From a virus (taxonomy: Duplodnaviria; Heunggongvirae; Uroviricota; Caudoviricetes): a stretch of DNA of 64,000 nucleotides. Positions 3,559 through 61,205 of the stretch are shown here, piece by piece. Within the stretch, counting starts at the first letter, position 1. Every line of letters begins with the position of its first letter. The notes beneath the pieces were generated by a model. The model was given only the letters and a program-made list of their open reading frames with translations, was not told the DNA's origin and ran no database searches. The translations under genes and the position numbers were made by a program. The DNA lies in IMG/VR virus record IMGVR_UViG_2778261638_000005, positions 6,684 through 70,683 of that record; one strand, 5' to 3'.

Positions 3559-4022
3559 TATTTTCTCTCCATGTGAAATCTGTGGAAATTAAGACCAAGA
3601 GCACCATAAGGCGCGGCTTCTTCAAGCCTGAATCCAAGCCAGTGCAGCCATGCTTTGGCAACATGGTTTCGCTCGTCGACGTAGTTTTCCAGGCGCGGAT
3701 AAACTGCCAGCATCTGCTGCAATACAGGGCGGCAGTGGCGAAGAAATGTCTTCTGATATTTTTCAATACGGCTGGTTCCGACCAGCCAGGGCGTACCATT
3801 GCCACCAATCATTGACGCCGGAGATACACCAAACATGGTTACCAGTTCTCCGTTTGCAAATCCTGACCAGGCCATGGTCGCAGTGCGCAGACCAACACGC
3901 AGCGCATCTTCGGTAGTCATCAGCGATACAGCATACAGTTCGTCAATATCAGCCTGACGAACATCCGGCAAAATCATCTGAAGATGCTCTTCGGTTGCGG
4001 GAATAATTTGAACATCGATCAT
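3558..4022 (-). CDS. hypothetical protein, structural module
   Basis: 154 aa ORF, translationally coupled to neighbours. Confidence 0.35.
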   Translation of the reverse strand: MIDVQIIPATEEHLQMILPDVRQADIDELYAVSLMTTEDALRVGLRTATMAWSGFANGELVTMFGVSPASMIGGNGTPWLVGTSRIEKYQKTFLRHCRPVLQQMLAVYPRLENYVDERNHVAKAWLHWLGFRLEEAAPYGALGLNFHRFHMERK

Positions 4023-6493
4023 CAGAATCCCCCAACAGTAAGGCGAGGAATAACGGCAAGAACAGACAGCGGCAACGGATCAAGCTGACGGATTTTTACA
4101 CGTCCGTTTTTGCCCCAGTTACTGTCCAGTTTCACTTCTACTTTTCCGGTAGCGTCATCAACAGGATCATCGTAGAACTCGAATTCACGCTGTGGATATT
4201 CGTACCATTTACCGCCGGGAGTAGTCGCCCAGATGCCGCGACTGGCATTCACAACCAGAGTAACGGACGGGATCACCTGTTTTTTGTCCAGCAGCGTTTC
4301 CTGTCCGTTAATGTTGATATCCAGTGTTTCGAATTCAGCAGTTATTGGCAGGCCGATGTGCACTACAGCCCCTGGTGATTCAAGCGTGACGGCACCTCCG
4401 GAAACTACTTTCTGTGGTTCCACGTTCGCATCAGAGAGGATGTTTACGGTCTGACCTTCAAGATGAGACAAGCCGCCAAATGCCCGGCGCGCCATCTGCC
4501 AGTTCGTGGTGGCCACATTCCTGAGGGATGGCGGGACGTTCCTGTTAGCACGAACCACTACAGCGGTGTTGCTGGTTACAGAAATAATGTCGCAACGTAA
4601 TTCTTTTGACACTTCATCGCCAGTATCAGGATCAGTTCCGGTATAAGGGAACTGTAGTTGCGCACCGACATCACTACTGGTGAAGTACGCACCACCAGAA
4701 ATACTGATTGTATATTCCGCGCGGTAATCCCATTCGCCAGAACCACCAGTGATGGTCATCGTTCTGTCAGACGTATTTCTTCCATCATAGCTAAGGCCAG
4801 AATCAACAAAGAAAGCATCTTCATCGCTGGTAAATAAACGGCTGGACAGCCGCTCGATGTATCTCACTGTTTGCCCGTTAACGGTTCGGTTAACGACGAA
4901 ATACACCGCATCTTCATTGCCTTCGCTGATACTGCATGTGCTTTCATATTTTCCGGTACTGGATTGTGGTGCCCATGCAAAAACCTGCTGATCACGCAAA
5001 TAGGTCATCACCAGTAATTTACCGTCATCACGAATGCAGAAGGCGCTGGAGTAAGGGACAATAGAGAAGCACCAGTCAACAATGCTGTGCTTCTGAAAAA
5101 GATGATTGGCAAGGATGGTCAGGTCGTTCCCCTGATAGCCGTCAACATCGAATGAGTAGGCCAAATCACGGACAACACTGCCTTTCTCCTGGACGAACAG
5201 AGCAATATTCGCCACGGCAATTGGTGGGACATTGCTCGAGCCATTTGATCCCTGAGAGCTGAATGCAAATGATGATGGGGTTAACACTTTGTTCTGGTCG
5301 CCGGTGATGACGTACTCACCTCCGGAAGTCAGTGCCACCAGCGAACCGACATCAATCAGGTGGCGGATCTCATTAACCTGACGCCCGGCATAGGTGTAGA
5401 TAATTCTGTCGTCATCCTGCGTAGGATTGCTTTTGCCAAAATCCTTATAATCCCCGGTACGGCTGGCCCAGATAGTCTGAGGGAACGCAGTCGATGCGGC
5501 GAAGTAAAGACGTTGTTGATAATAAACAACAGTGCCAGGATAACCATTAACACTGTTCCAGGTATATTTAGCCCATTTATAGCTGGCATTATCCTCGCCA
5601 ACTACCTGCGAAGGGATATAGGAAATCACCTCGGCAGTTGCAGTAGTTCCATTTGCAGCAGTGATACGGGCAATGCCAAAACCACTGTGCAGATATTCCC
5701 ACTCAATGCCAGTATCATCATCACCGGATCCGCCCCAGCCATCCCATGATGTGCCTTCTGTATGCGAAGGGCGCAAAGTACCTGTTTTGCCTGCTGTAAC
5801 GGCGCGATAGTAGTTACTGTCTGCACGGCGAATATCGCCAATCGACGTACTCTTACTGGTTTCCCATACCGGCACTGAATCCACTGCAGGCTGTTCCAGA
5901 TAGAACAATTTTCCTACCTGCTCCGCGCCAAAAATAGAGGCGCTTGCCGTTAACGTAATTGTCCCGGTGCTGGCGCTGGCATAAACCGTCACTGACTCGT
6001 CAATATTGATATCTTCAAATGGCCCGTTCTTCGTTACCACATCAACCAGTTGCCAGTTGTCATGAGCATATCGGCGCAACTCTTTCGGCGGGTATGCCGG
6101 GTGAACCAGCGTAAGCACGTCGGCGCTTTGCGTGAATTTAATTCGGAACAGATCGGCTTCAGTATATGGCGTGGCAATTTCATAAATAACATTGCTGCTG
6201 TTCAGCACCAACGCACCATCTTTGATAACGCGCATGTACTGGTGTCCGAACTCCAGAGCATAGGTCTGAACCGTCGAGAACTGGAACGGGATCAGGCGGC
6301 ATTTCCGATTTGGGTATTTGGCGGCACCGACAAAACGCGTACCAGGTCGATTCTCAACGCCGCCATACTGCCGCACGATAAAGTTATCGCACTTGCGCAA
6401 TGCCACCTGGTACTTCGCCATGTCAATACGCCCGTACAACGACGGTCCAATCTCACCACCGGCAAAGCTGGGCTGGATCCAACTGATAGCCAT
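4022..6493 (-). CDS. tail tubular protein B-like (nozzle) protein
   Basis: 823 aa, directly after a tail tubular A-like gene; size and order as in T7-like gp11-gp12. Confidence 0.45.
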   Translation of the reverse strand: MAISWIQPSFAGGEIGPSLYGRIDMAKYQVALRKCDNFIVRQYGGVENRPGTRFVGAAKYPNRKCRLIPFQFSTVQTYALEFGHQYMRVIKDGALVLNSSNVIYEIATPYTEADLFRIKFTQSADVLTLVHPAYPPKELRRYAHDNWQLVDVVTKNGPFEDINIDESVTVYASASTGTITLTASASIFGAEQVGKLFYLEQPAVDSVPVWETSKSTSIGDIRRADSNYYRAVTAGKTGTLRPSHTEGTSWDGWGGSGDDDTGIEWEYLHSGFGIARITAANGTTATAEVISYIPSQVVGEDNASYKWAKYTWNSVNGYPGTVVYYQQRLYFAASTAFPQTIWASRTGDYKDFGKSNPTQDDDRIIYTYAGRQVNEIRHLIDVGSLVALTSGGEYVITGDQNKVLTPSSFAFSSQGSNGSSNVPPIAVANIALFVQEKGSVVRDLAYSFDVDGYQGNDLTILANHLFQKHSIVDWCFSIVPYSSAFCIRDDGKLLVMTYLRDQQVFAWAPQSSTGKYESTCSISEGNEDAVYFVVNRTVNGQTVRYIERLSSRLFTSDEDAFFVDSGLSYDGRNTSDRTMTITGGSGEWDYRAEYTISISGGAYFTSSDVGAQLQFPYTGTDPDTGDEVSKELRCDIISVTSNTAVVVRANRNVPPSLRNVATTNWQMARRAFGGLSHLEGQTVNILSDANVEPQKVVSGGAVTLESPGAVVHIGLPITAEFETLDININGQETLLDKKQVIPSVTLVVNASRGIWATTPGGKWYEYPQREFEFYDDPVDDATGKVEVKLDSNWGKNGRVKIRQLDPLPLSVLAVIPRLTVGGF

Positions 6494-18532: not shown

Positions 18533-18877
18533 TCAGAACTCTTCGATATTCCAGCCGCCACCTGCTTTCTTTGGCTTAACCGTTACCCCGATGATTCGGA
18601 ACGGATACTGATCTGCGGCGACTTTGGTTTTCACCCTGGCGTCGTCGGTCCAGAAACCTTTCACTTCATGCAGTTCCATCTCACCAGTGGCGAGCATCAC
18701 AGCGAAATCTGGCGTATAGAACGTGTTGTCAGCCAGCCGCAGCTTGATACCCTCGAACCGATACCAGGCGATTTCCCCTGCACGTTTACGCTGCTCAAGG
18801 TGCTGGCAATACGCAGATTCTGTTTTGTTCATCTGGCCTGTTTTGAGTCGACCAAGAGCCTGTATCTGCTTTCTCAT
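18533..18877 (-). CDS. putative PD-(D/E)XK-type nuclease family protein
   Basis: 114 aa; TPDF...GEMELHEVKG resembles a PD..ExK motif; first gene downstream of P in the resident phage. Confidence 0.4.
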   Translation of the reverse strand: MRKQIQALGRLKTGQMNKTESAYCQHLEQRKRAGEIAWYRFEGIKLRLADNTFYTPDFAVMLATGEMELHEVKGFWTDDARVKTKVAADQYPFRIIGVTVKPKKAGGGWNIEEF

Positions 18878-58256: not shown

Positions 58257-58841
58257 ATGAAAAATATCCAGGACGTCCGCAGGCAAAATCTCAACGACTT
58301 GATCGACCGTGAATTCAATGGTGTTCAGACGCGGATGGCAGAAAAACTTGGAACTCAGGCAAATCTGGTAAACCGCTGGGCTCTTGGCAAGAAGGTTATC
58401 GGCGACCAGGTTGCGCGAAAAATTGAAGCTGCCGCCAATAAACCACGTAACTGGCTTGATATCGATCGCTCGCTTTCTCAGGAGGGTTTTCAGCCTGTTG
58501 GACCAAGCGACATTGGTCAGCTGGCGGCTCACAACCTGGAACGCTGGATGAGTGAAAGCCGCGACCTTTCAACTCAGGGAAAACTTCACCGCGCATCCGG
58601 CGTCGCCCAGGTGACAATCAGCCGCCTGTTAAACAATGAGGTCAGCGTTTCCATTTCCACTCTGGAGAATGTTGCATCTGCATTCGGGCGTCACGGATAT
58701 GAACTACTGATTCACCCGCACGACCCTGCAACTATCAACTATGACCGCTCGCGCTACGCATTGTTACCTGAAACCGAGAAAGCAAAGATCGAAAGTTACA
58801 TTGAATTTGTCATCAACCAGAACGAAAAAAACAAACAATAA
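58257..58841 (+). CDS. putative prophage repressor (two HTH-like segments, no peptidase domain)
   Basis: 194 aa; position and orientation of cI relative to cro-like and O/P. Confidence 0.5.
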   Translation: MKNIQDVRRQNLNDLIDREFNGVQTRMAEKLGTQANLVNRWALGKKVIGDQVARKIEAAANKPRNWLDIDRSLSQEGFQPVGPSDIGQLAAHNLERWMSESRDLSTQGKLHRASGVAQVTISRLLNNEVSVSISTLENVASAFGRHGYELLIHPHDPATINYDRSRYALLPETEKAKIESYIEFVINQNEKNKQ

Positions 58842-58863
58842 AATCATATTTTTCAGTAAGTAA

Positions 58864-58886
58864 GCCGCCATTTGGCGGCTTTTTTA
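58864..58886 (+). terminator. rho-independent terminator after repressor gene
   Basis: GCCGCC-attt-GGCGGC followed by TTTTTTT. Confidence 0.6.
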
Positions 58887-58896
58887 TTGTCTATCT

Positions 58897-58915: not shown

Positions 58916-58994
58916 TTTTTAACTCATATCTATTGACATCAAACCAAATACGCATAATTATTACCTCAACGGTAACAAGCCGAGGTGACAAGTT

Positions 58995-59147
58995 ATGCAG
59001 TGGAAAATTATCAACGGTTGGTACTGTGTTACTGCATGCGGATTCATGAGCTGGAAGTTCCGCACCTTACAGGAAGGCATTAAGTGGGCTTTCGTCAGCA
59101 AAGAAGCTCGCGATGTGGCCAACGATAACGAGATATGGGAGGGCTGA
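58995..59147 (+). CDS. small protein, first gene of the early-left-type operon (not in ORF track)
   Basis: 50 aa from ATG 58995 with GAGG RBS; stop 2 nt before next gene start. Confidence 0.3.
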   Translation: MQWKIINGWYCVTACGFMSWKFRTLQEGIKWAFVSKEARDVANDNEIWEG

Positions 59148-59149
59148 TA

Positions 59150-59449
59150 ATGAACGTTAATCAGCAGAAAAATCTTCAAAAAATCATGCTGGCGTTCGAC
59201 AAGGACTACCGCCTGTCAGAACAGCTATATGACCGACAAGTTGAACTGATTGAGAGCATCCGACTTCATCAACTGGCCTCAACTTTCGACGTTGTAACAG
59301 GCAAAGGCGTTCGCCAGGAAGTACTGGAGGCCGCTAAAGACAGCCCTGAGTTCGAAGAACTAATGGATGCCTACCGGCGAGAGGCAATGGCAATTATCGC
59401 CAGCTGGGATCTGGCAGATCAGCTTGATGGGCAGAGGGACGCGGCATGA
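59150..59449 (+). CDS. hypothetical early protein
   Basis: Probable start MNVNQQKN at 59150; overlaps exonuclease start. Confidence 0.45.
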   Translation: MNVNQQKNLQKIMLAFDKDYRLSEQLYDRQVELIESIRLHQLASTFDVVTGKGVRQEVLEAAKDSPEFEELMDAYRREAMAIIASWDLADQLDGQRDAA

Positions 59450-60267
59450 AACCGGGAATTTATTTCGACATCAGCAACGAAGACTACCACGCCGGTGACG
59501 GCGTGAGTAAGTCGCAACTGGACATGGTTGCCAAGAATCCGGCGCTTCTTAAATGGGTTCAGGCAGCACCAGAAGACGAAGAGAAAAAGTCTGCACTGGA
59601 TATGGGAACCGCATTGCACTGCCTGCTTCTGGAACCTGGAGAATTCGACAAACGCTTCATCGTTTCACCGAAATTCGATCGTCGGACAAAACAAGGTAAA
59701 GCTGACGAAGAAGCATTTCTTCGTGATGTGACGGATATGGGTATTGCGGTACTTGATGTCGAGCAGTGGCGAAAACTGGAGCTGATGCGTGATAGCGCAA
59801 TGGCTCATCCGGCGGCACGCTGGATGTTGGAAGCACCTGGTTACTGCGAAGCATCAATGTACTGGAACGATGAAGAAACGGGTGAGTTGTGCCGAATTCG
59901 TCCAGACAAATGGCTGAACGAGCACAACGTGATCGTCGACGTGAAAAAGGTTGCGGATATGGACCGTTTTGCACGCCACATCGAGGAATTCCGCTACCAC
60001 GTGCAGGACGCAATGTACCGCGAAGGCGCAATGAGGGTTACTGGTCAGCCGCATGGTTTTTTCTTTCTTGCCGTGAGCGAAAGCATTGATTGTGGTCGGT
60101 ATCCGGTACGCGTGTTCGAGCTGGATGCGCAGGATGTCGATGCCGGGCACACTCTGTTCCGCCGGGATCTGAATACCTATCACGAATGCCGCATCAATGA
60201 TGAATGGGGCGGTGTGGAAATCATTAAACGCCCTGAGTGGGCACGCAAACAGGATATGTACATATGA
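59446..60267 (+). CDS. PD-(D/E)XK recombination exonuclease (YqaJ/RecE-type)
   Basis: 273 aa, upstream partner of the annealase; acidic/Lys motif IVDVKK. Confidence 0.6.
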   Translation: MKPGIYFDISNEDYHAGDGVSKSQLDMVAKNPALLKWVQAAPEDEEKKSALDMGTALHCLLLEPGEFDKRFIVSPKFDRRTKQGKADEEAFLRDVTDMGIAVLDVEQWRKLELMRDSAMAHPAARWMLEAPGYCEASMYWNDEETGELCRIRPDKWLNEHNVIVDVKKVADMDRFARHIEEFRYHVQDAMYREGAMRVTGQPHGFFFLAVSESIDCGRYPVRVFELDAQDVDAGHTLFRRDLNTYHECRINDEWGGVEIIKRPEWARKQDMYI

Positions 60268-61205
60268 GCAACGACATCGCAAACATCAACGCACCAGTAG
60301 ACACAGCAATCGCTGGAACTGCTGCAACTATTTTCAGCCCAGACGGCTTGAACCAACTGATGAAATTCGCCGAGGTAATGGCGCAAAGCCGCGTAACGGT
60401 ACCGGCGCACCTCGCCGGGAAACCAGCTGATTGCATGGCCGTGGCAATGCAGGCTGCGCAGTGGGGAATGAACCCGTTTGCCGTGGCTCAGAAAACCCAT
60501 GTTGTGAACGGCACGCTAGGTTATGAAGCCCAATTAGTAAACGCAGTTATCTCAACAATGTCGCCAACAAAAGATCGCATCAACTACGAGTGGTTCGGGC
60601 CGTGGGAACGCGTGATCGGTAAGTTTGTTGAGAAAACATCCAAAAACGGCAATCCGTATATCGCACCAGGCTGGACTCTAAAAGACGAAGAAGGTTGCGG
60701 TGTTCGCGTATGGGCAACCATGAAGGGCGAGGATCAACCTCGAGTGCTTGAGTTAATGCTGTCTCAAGCACAGGTAAGAAACTCCACACTTTGGGCCAGT
60801 GATCCGAAACAACAACTCGCATACCTTGCGACAAAACGCTGGTCTCGCTTGCACTGTCCTGACGTAATCATGGGCGTCTACACACCAGACGAATTACAGG
60901 AAACGGCACCGCGCGTTGAGCGAGACATTACTCCGCAAACGATCACTGCTGCGGGAATGAACAGTCTGATCAACGCTAAACAAGTGAAAAAGCCTGATGA
61001 GCAAACGCGTAAAGCGGATAGCCGTGCTCCAGAAGAAATGCTAATGGCCTTTACCAGCGCAGCGATGAATTACAGCACTGTCTCCGAACTGGATAAGGCT
61101 TACAAATACATTGCACAAAAACTTTCAGATGATGACGAACTGCTGGCAAAAGCCACCGACGTTTACAGCGTTCGTCGGGAAGAATTAAACGAAACATCTA
61201 TGTAA
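60264..61205 (+). CDS. RecT/Red-beta family single-strand annealing protein
   Basis: Start ATG overlaps exonuclease stop (ATGA); ERDITPQTI resembles lambda Bet ERDITPVND. Confidence 0.6.
   Translation: MSNDIANINAPVDTAIAGTAATIFSPDGLNQLMKFAEVMAQSRVTVPAHLAGKPADCMAVAMQAAQWGMNPFAVAQKTHVVNGTLGYEAQLVNAVISTMSPTKDRINYEWFGPWERVIGKFVEKTSKNGNPYIAPGWTLKDEEGCGVRVWATMKGEDQPRVLELMLSQAQVRNSTLWASDPKQQLAYLATKRWSRLHCPDVIMGVYTPDELQETAPRVERDITPQTITAAGMNSLINAKQVKKPDEQTRKADSRAPEEMLMAFTSAAMNYSTVSELDKAYKYIAQKLSDDDELLAKATDVYSVRREELNETSM

Follow-up and report, generated by a model that had tools for sequence, protein, structure and literature searches.

Immediately downstream of the repressor gene rep, the early-left-type region of this prophage opens with a short protein-coding gene, here called s50 (Table 1). 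The window (the whole stretch of 64,000 nucleotides that was analysed) places it between the prophage repressor and a series of genes that begins with a 99-aa protein, an exonuclease and a single-strand annealing protein. The s50 stop codon lies 2 nt before the ATG of the next gene (59150), whose own Shine-Dalgarno sequence, GGGAGGG at 59137-59143, is contained within the last s50 codons.

A preliminary description of this DNA had proposed a 50-aa ORF with a ribosome-binding site and a stop 2 nt before the next gene, and each of these details was borne out. It had also pointed to an operator palindrome and a TTGACA element upstream of the ORF; there are in fact two perfect TTACC-N5-GGTAA sites, which flank TTGACA-17-AATTAT. 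The proposed role of s50 as first cistron of an early-left-type operon agrees with the gene order as well: the repressor-controlled promoter is followed by s50 and then by the exonuclease, RecT, an AlpA-like gene, a methyltransferase and the integrase.

Table 1. Features at and around the s50 gene; positions refer to the window.
Feature	Position	Strand	Remarks
Rep, prophage repressor with two HTH domains	58257..58841	+	5' of s50
Intrinsic terminator of rep	58862..58889	+	parts rep from the early-left transcript; also placed at 58862-58881; annotated in phiV10
Repressor operator-type palindrome TTACCTTGCAGGTAA	58899..58913	.	TTACC-N5-GGTAA; 5' of the -35 hexamer
PL-type sigma-70 promoter (predicted)	58933..58961	+	TTGACA (58933-58938), 17 nt, AATTAT (58956-58961); 10/12 positions match
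Repressor operator-type palindrome TTACCTCAACGGTAA	58961..58975	.	TTACC-N5-GGTAA; overlaps the -10 hexamer and the inferred transcription start; 20-34 nt before the ATG
Antisense ORF, 72 aa	58961..59179	-	wobble positions in common with s50; rejected as a gene
Shine-Dalgarno sequence of s50, GAGGT	58982..58986	+	8-9 nt 5' of the ATG (GAGG = 58982-58985)
s50, protein-coding gene, 50 aa	58995..59147	+	ATG at 58995; 50 sense codons encoding MQWKIINGWYCVTACGFMSWKFRTLQEGIKWAFVSKEARDVANDNEIWEG; TGA at 59145-59147; epsilon15 gp37 / PhiV10p39 / PHROG 898 family
99-aa gene, PHROG 856	59150..59449	+	coupled to s50; slot held by lambda-type Gam or phi80-type GamL in relatives
PD-(D/E)XK exonuclease, DUF3799, RecE-like	59446..60267	+	3' of the 99-aa gene
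RecT single-strand annealing protein	60264..61205	+	3' of the exonuclease

Promoter, operators and control by Rep

From the geometry of the promoter, transcription of s50 would start at about position 58968, so that the leader would be about 27 nt long. In the type-A loci, a -35 hexamer of the same TTGAC type is found at the same spacing to the flanking sites. The palindrome TTACC-N5-GGTAA occurs nine times in the window against an expectation of 1.03, a number reached by none of 100 shuffles, and the corresponding sites of epsilon15 match the three binding features labelled 'repressor, lysogeny' in its GenBank record. Whatever the architecture of the leader, 17 of 18 examined loci have a copy 27-34 nt before the s50 ATG, locus L021 being the one with a degenerate site. 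This arrangement might suggest an operator specific to s50, placed beside the ribosome-binding site for autoregulation. The idea is weakened, since operators that abut a start codon are a general feature of this phage, the same layout preceding the resolvase and small-terminase genes.

As an RNA, the leader is predicted to fold without unusual structure (z=-0.69). A search of Rfam gave no match to it above threshold, and the sub-threshold matches centre on the rep terminator and the intergenic region.

A structural paper on the Rep and Ant proteins of SPC32H has reportedly come from Kim et al., in PNAS in 2016. Lytic transcription is switched off by overexpression of Rep in ZX5, a near-identical phage (PMC9782041). 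Judging by the geometry of promoter and operators in the window, s50 would be the first gene to be expressed upon derepression.

The s50 reading frame and its family

The gene is already known, although always as a hypothetical protein. Its amino-acid sequence is identical to RefSeq WP_001198620.1 ('hypothetical protein') and to PhiV10p39 (YP_512294.1) of phage phiV10, whose record describes the latter as similar to epsilon15p37. The description of the ORF as unannotated is thus wrong for public data, and holds only for the ORF track used in the preliminary description. Identity to epsilon15 gp37 is about 79%, and residues 1-50 align with positions 1-50 of the 50-position profile of PHROG 898 (E=1.9e-38). 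Both gp37 and PhiV10p39 occupy the same slot as s50, between rep and the 99-aa gene, and are the same gene; its position between rep and a gp36-like gene, 5' of exonuclease and RecT, is also the same in the records of phiV10, epsilon15, PAT1, BUCT711 and BUCT554. The surrounding region is 95-99.8% identical to phages of the phiV10 type (Uetakevirus) and recurs in prophages of 545 of 5426 complete E. coli genomes (about one in ten). The element that carries s50 is a phiV10/epsilon15-type, Uetakevirus-like prophage. As a sequence feature, s50 therefore offers nothing new, since both RefSeq and the records of the type phages already include it.

Indexed and exhaustive HMM searches delimit a narrow family that is confined to Enterobacterales. 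Clustering gives about 60 groups at 90% identity, and at 50% there are 19 representatives; every one carries the name 'hypothetical'. When 1.84 billion representatives were searched exhaustively with the profile, 19 matches were obtained, and all belong to this narrow family except P0030, a repetitive protein of 1929 aa that is a false positive. IMG/VR holds 393 relatives of s50; the best 80 loci all encode the identical protein and therefore add no diversity. No match to s50 was found in Pfam, NCBIfam or PADLOC. The PADLOC result extends to the distant family members P0036 and P0033, to three neighbours in the window and to the 348-aa protein of locus L022. Searches of Pfam, NCBIfam, PADLOC and PDB sequences did return DUF2985, Phage_zn_bind_5, Sharpin_PH, Mucolipin-2 and AcrIIC5, all below threshold and mutually inconsistent, and these were discarded. 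In the searchable literature, no functional data were found on the s50 accessions, on the family or on the phages concerned.

Taken alone, a 50-codon ORF does not rise above chance here, because 5.5 kb of this DNA contain 76 ORFs of at least 30 aa. It is accepted as a real gene because it is conserved. The reading frame, its ATG, the Shine-Dalgarno sequence and the stop adjoining the next start persist in all of 22 loci, which represent nine genera of enterobacteria, namely Escherichia, Salmonella, Klebsiella, Enterobacter, Citrobacter, Scandinavium, Pseudocitrobacter, Erwinia (Erwinia dacicola) and Serratia; additional loci came from sequencing-read assemblies, with proteins matching Hafnia and Serratia entries. 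The preliminary description had named conservation in related prophages as the check on its proposal and loss of the frame as the refutation; across the 22 loci no such loss was found. Nearly all homologous loci have a purine-rich Shine-Dalgarno sequence of the GAGG/GAGGT type. The homologues range from 47 to 54 aa, with frame-preserving length differences.

The pattern of substitution is that of a coding sequence in its larger part. Among 15 distinct sequences of codons 1-33, variable sites are distributed 7/7/25 over the three codon positions (binomial P=8e-5), and comparisons in pairs give dN values of 0.01-0.13 with saturated dS. In the last 14-17 codons, dN/dS lies between 0.4 and values above 1. 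By these sequence comparisons, residues 1-36 are under purifying selection and the 14-residue tail is variable. The C-terminal tails fall into two unrelated types, each of which goes with different downstream genes, so that the 3' end of s50 looks like a mosaic junction, in which the same codons also carry the ribosome-binding site of the next gene.

The opposite strand needs to be considered as well, since the antisense ORF of 72 aa is likewise open in most loci, its wobble positions being common with those of s50, and since the record of Enterobacter phage Tyrion calls this ORF (gp39) and not s50. That it is the true gene, or that there is no gene here whatever, is nevertheless extremely improbable. 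The antisense frame is shortened to 22 aa in the Scandinavium locus (L016), its start is not conserved, with the first start codon shifting between loci, and its transcription would run against the operon. In a six-frame comparison, codons with synonymous-only changes stand against codons with amino-acid changes at 8 versus 24 in the antisense frame and at 15 versus 15, without stops, in the plus frame. The other examined records with gene calls at this place, including RefSeq PGAP, phiV10 and epsilon15, call the plus ORF. On this comparative evidence, the plus frame is the gene.

Predicted protein and operon context

With an alignment of 36 sequences that included distant members, AF2 gave a model with a pLDDT of 74.9, and its five models converge (69-75). 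The predicted secondary structure consists of three strands (residues 2-6, 9-14 and 18-22) and a C-terminal helix (residues 25-48). An alignment of 14 close sequences had yielded an unusable, helical model of low confidence (pLDDT 54). The s50 product is thus predicted, with moderate AF2 confidence, to be a soluble beta-beta-beta-alpha mini-protein. Both predicted turns carry a glycine (G8 and G16) that is at least 90% conserved. The near-invariant positions are W3, G8, T13, G16, S19, F22, W31, F33 and A38; conserved aromatic residues comprise W3, an aromatic residue at position 10, W20, F22, W31 and F33, and conservation of basic residues is limited to positions 21 and 36. Protein binding is favoured over DNA binding because the conserved residues are mostly aromatic or small, with few basic ones among them. 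A putative zinc or disulfide motif, CxxxC at residues 11 and 15, was rejected, as both cysteines are replaced in distant members.

Foldseek searches with the model returned nothing significant, the best E values being 2.7 in the PDB and 0.25 in BFVD. Those in BFVD are weak and comprise small phage proteins that are themselves uncharacterised, along with a DUF2188 protein and the N-termini of HNH endonucleases and integrases.

The moderately hydrophobic appearance of residues 5-20 (IINGWYCVTACGFMSW), together with the helical form of the first, shallow AF2 model, could be taken to indicate a small membrane peptide with a hydrophobic N-terminal segment, either type-I-toxin-like or holin-like. 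This is highly improbable. When the highest Kyte-Doolittle mean over 19 residues is taken for each of 36 members, the values have a median of 0.78 and peak at 1.45, short of the rule-of-thumb limit of 1.6; a transmembrane segment is excluded because the hydropathy is too low. The best-scoring segment contains two to five polar or charged residues, with E, N, H, Q or K in distant members, and the better-supported model is a beta-sheet, with the conserved G8 and G16 at its turns.

In every locus, s50 is the first cistron after rep and the promoter, except in two Serratia-type loci, where an ORF of 60-70 aa precedes it and s50 is second. What follows is far more variable. In the window, in epsilon15 and in Klebsiella the next gene encodes the 99-aa PHROG 856 protein. 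In locus L111 it encodes a lambda-type Gam (Pfam E=3.6e-12), in the order s50-gam-exo-recT, and in L024 a 94-aa protein of no assigned family. Proteins of 300-348 aa follow s50 in L018, L020, L022, L023, L025 and L027; in L025, a phi80-type GamL (NCBIfam E=2.3e-20) is encoded 3' of the 326-aa gene that comes after s50. A 550-aa RecE-like protein directly follows s50 in L026. Further 3', the operons contain a DUF3799 or YqaJ exonuclease, RecT, an AlpA-like gene, methyltransferases and an integrase adjoining guaA.

Despite this exchange of neighbours, the s50 stop codon in the loci examined either shares nucleotides with the next start (as ATGA or GTGA) or comes 2-4 nt ahead of it, with any downstream gene. 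The spacing was taken from our own scan, and from annotated or called downstream starts where the scan had taken an upstream in-frame start. By this arrangement of stop and start codons, s50 is translationally coupled to whichever gene comes next.

Of the records in the phage collection, the same 36 contain Rep, s50 and the 99-aa gene, and the s50 family is found only beside this type of rep gene. Across loci, conservation of the s50 core is about on a par with that of Rep and Cro, while exonuclease, RecT and the genes in the second slot are exchanged; a claim that s50 is exceptionally conserved relative to its neighbours is thus unsupported. Since s50 stays while the recombination genes are shuffled, it belongs with the immunity/PL end of the operon. 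An anti-RecBCD function of s50 itself was considered and rejected, because s50 co-occurs with a true Gam (L111) and a true GamL (L025); the s50 sequence has no match to Pfam Gam or NCBIfam phi80_GamL. Occupying the slot of Gam or GamL, the 99-aa gene is likewise a candidate, in its case for a novel anti-RecBCD protein.

Possible functions and relation to known systems

Time and again, small genes at the head of early operons have proved to encode host-takeover or regulatory factors. The overall best explanation for s50, which may be about as readily right as wrong, is that it is a real, translated early gene under the control of Rep, with a product that acts in trans by a Kil-type mechanism. 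On inactivation of Rep, s50 would be made first, in step with the recombination genes. Its product would act in trans by binding a partner, and the peptide might cause a transient block of cell division, or of another process in the host, for the time in which the functions for recombination and replication are at work. The more particular assignment as a Kil-type host-interference peptide is plausible and put forward tentatively, by analogy of position, because s50 lies where lambda and P22 keep kil, 5' of anti-RecBCD and recombination genes. The preliminary description had already pointed out that first genes of early-left operons often encode small host-interference proteins, and the support for this idea in s50 is likewise positional.

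Several other roles have to be weighed against the Kil-like one. The location of s50 would also suit an accessory cofactor of the recombination module, similar to Arf or Abc1 of P22. Such a protein would be small and dispensable, and would either stimulate the reaction of exonuclease and RecT or shield the substrates of that reaction. In support of this, genes for a RecT-type annealing protein and an exonuclease are always present in the operon of s50, which is coupled to the first gene of the module; moreover, the recombination module of P22 includes small helpers of unknown mechanism (PMC12315714), and P22 arf, with 47 aa, is of similar size. A specific cofactor would, however, be expected to co-vary with its partner, and s50 instead tracks the Rep/PL region. 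The adjacent recombination genes are freely swapped while s50 stays: the exonuclease may be of the DUF3799, YqaJ or long RecE kind, the RecT proteins beside s50 are only 26-78% identical, and the next slot is held by Gam, GamL or the 99-aa protein. Comparison with P22 Arf by hhalign shows no similarity (probability 0.13%), and the cofactor role is rather unlikely. A purely cis-acting leader cistron, whose translation would itself load ribosomes onto the downstream recombination genes or sense translation while the peptide is functionless, would account for the close stop/start arrangement (overlap, or a gap of 2-4 nt) seen in all examined loci, and for the placement of the next Shine-Dalgarno sequence inside the last s50 codons. 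Such a role is very unlikely in view of the strong purifying selection on the amino-acid sequence of residues 1-36. Arrest and sensing peptides are conserved at the C-terminus, which is the most variable part of s50, and the leader RNA shows neither marked structure (z=-0.69) nor an Rfam family above threshold.

The arm-binding N-terminal domain of lambda Int and the AP2 class are small beta-beta-beta-alpha domains, and s50 is predicted to share their topology, a three-stranded antiparallel sheet followed by a helix. On this basis, s50 might be a minimal DNA-binding regulator of this fold class that, as first gene of its operon, acts in a role like that of Cro, Ner, Cox or Apl in other phages. 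The integrase and HNH endonuclease N-terminal regions and the DUF2188 protein among the weak BFVD matches (TM 0.54-0.62, probability up to 0.92) point the same way, as do the resemblance of the s50 motif INGWYCV to NNGYYCY of lambda Int (common NG[WY]YC), the net charge of +4 of the core in the window, and the position beside the immunity region, with an operator-type palindrome shortly before the ATG in nearly all loci. Against this stand several observations. None of the Foldseek matches is significant (E at least 2.7 in the PDB and at least 0.25 in BFVD), and those in the PDB include no Int N-domain, Tn916 Int or AP2 protein. With hhalign, the probability is 11.5% over 7 columns for the lambda Int N-domain and 0.6% for the integrase N-domain of a related prophage (L007), and the Pfam models for arm-binding and AP2 domains do not match s50 even at E<=10. 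Conserved basic positions are restricted to 21 and 36, the charge of the core falls to between 0 and +2 in distant members, and operators that abut start codons are, as described above, general in this phage. A DNA-binding regulator is hence regarded as unlikely.

Besides the Kil-like reading, it is possible, if doubtful, that s50 founds a new class of 50-aa beta-beta-beta-alpha early proteins in the epsilon15-type immunity region of Enterobacterales phages, with a mechanism unrelated to those of Kil, Arf, Gam and N. If so, its product might for example be an inhibitor of a conserved host protein, or a modulator of tetrameric Rep that locks in derepression once PL has fired. There is also a minor chance that s50 is something other than any of the readings listed here. 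The value of the gene is modest and lies in its being a well-defined target: predicted to be soluble, strongly conserved, and always coupled to recombination genes.

Among known systems, the antiterminator genes, lambda N and P22 gp24, have the same map position as s50, in that the repressor gene is followed by operators and PL and then by the first cistron. The s50 protein differs from lambda N in lacking an arginine-rich motif (there are 2 Arg in 50 aa), and in fold and size. At about 27 nt, its inferred leader is too short to include a nut site, and a search of 58.9-59.5 kb found no boxA. Arf and Abc1 of P22 resemble s50 as small genes in a phage recombination module with unknown mechanism, and the P22 genes are non-essential (PMC12315714). 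Arf is encoded directly 5' of the annealing protein Erf, whereas s50 is one to three genes away from RecT.

The Kil peptides of lambda and P22 offer the closest positional parallel. Like s50, they are peptides of about 50 aa that are encoded in a repressor-controlled early-left operon and abut anti-RecBCD and recombination genes. In lambda, kil (47 aa) overlaps gam, with bet and exo next (PMC3961180); in P22, kil overlaps arf, which is followed by erf. The gene orders kil-gam-bet-exo in lambda and kil-arf-erf in P22 may be set beside s50-gam-exo-recT in L111. Both Kil peptides are FtsZ-directed inhibitors of cell division, and the likeness of s50 to them is positional. The predicted fold of s50 is beta-rich, unlike Kil, and hhalign finds no sequence similarity to either peptide (probability 0.19% for lambda Kil and 0.31% for P22 Kil). 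The position within the operon differs too: in lambda, the genes N, ral, sieB, ea10 and cIII come before kil, whereas s50 is first after the promoter. Because sequence comparison places s50 with none of Kil, Arf, Gam, GamL and N, it is described here as a peptide that may work like Kil, and not as a member of the Kil family. The synteny could also simply reflect common ancestry of a single early-region module.

Leaders of the 50-aa gene in relatives

In epsilon15-type relatives, the promoter of the 50-aa gene (epsilon15 gp37 family) lies ~132 nt 5' of the ATG, and the leader is ~70 nt longer than that in the window. A hairpin resembling a terminator forms part of this leader (CCACCACCTGGTGGCTTTCTC in L003 is one example), and a third operator comes after it, just 5' of the ribosome-binding site. 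This arrangement suggests that the epsilon15-type leader is subject to attenuation or roadblock control, and that the short leader in the window is without such control.

The record of Enterobacter phage Tyrion contains gp39, a non-conserved antisense ORF, and leaves out the conserved 49-aa gene on the opposite strand; the gp39 call is probably a mis-annotation.

Coordinates of leaders, genes, palindromes and prophage junctions (L numbers: homologous loci)
Feature	Sequence	Position	Strand
Epsilon15-type leader	L010	1334-1500	
Epsilon15-type leader	L003	5835-6000	
Epsilon15-type leader	L016, L018, L020		
Leader, further relatives	L022, L023, L026, L027		
Tyrion gp39	L011	1405-1617	minus
49-aa gene	L011	1501-1650	plus
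Further TTACC-N5-GGTAA palindromes, phiV10-like prophage	window	12290; 15416 + 15434; 18881 + 18943; 58139 + 58187	
Mu-like prophage	window	19092-56000	
Left flank	window / L001	18937-19091 / 1-155	
Right flank	window / L001	56001-57549 / 152-1700	
99-aa gene (PHROG 856)	window	59150-59449	plus
Exonuclease	window	59446-60267	plus
RecT	window	60264-61205	plus
PhiV10p37	L002 (phiV10)	3597-5357	
300-348-aa gene	L018	4147-5046	
300-348-aa gene	L022	5150-6196	
300-348-aa gene	L025	3249-4229	
300-348-aa gene	L027	5153-6199	
300-348-aa gene	L020, L023		

Operator-type palindromes and the Mu-like insertion

TTACC-N5-GGTAA palindromes, the operator-type sites of the prophage repressor Rep, occur nine times in the window, against one expected. 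Two tandem copies end directly before the ATG (~15413) of the small-terminase gene on the minus strand. In the interval separating gene P from the RuvC-like resolvase gene, a promoter-like stretch has one palindrome on each side, and this pair ends 4 nt before the resolvase ATG at 18877. Given these positions, Rep may directly control, or act as a roadblock to, late and middle genes.

Between 8 and 19 kb, the window carries the terminase, portal and resolvase genes of the phiV10-like prophage. Replication gene P of this prophage is interrupted within its 3' end by a Mu-like prophage of 36.9 kb that shares 96-98% identity with SfMu, Mu and D108 (junctions at ~19091/19092 and 56000/56001); the phiV10-like host is therefore probably replication-defective. 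Alignment to the intact relative L001 shows both flanks, and the two matches overlap by 4 nt, as would fit a short target-site duplication.

Genes downstream of the 50-aa gene

Several Citrobacter, Serratia and Hafnia relatives carry a 300-348-aa gene inserted directly 3' of the 50-aa gene and translationally coupled to it. It has no match in Pfam, NCBIfam or PADLOC, and is an uncharacterised cargo gene in a recombination-module hotspot.

Exonuclease and RecT are encoded by separate, overlapping genes in the window, as in RefSeq E. coli prophages, while the phiV10 RefSeq record has a single gene for a fused RecE-RecT protein (PhiV10p37). Either a frameshift or fusion in phiV10 or differing annotation accounts for this.

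In the window, the 50-aa gene is followed directly by a 99-aa gene without a match in Pfam or NCBIfam, and without BLASTP similarity to the GamL-type protein. One relative (L111) has a lambda-type Gam in this slot; like the phi80-type GamL in L025, the 99-aa gene lies directly 5' of the exonuclease gene. This position makes its product a candidate third, non-homologous anti-RecBCD protein.
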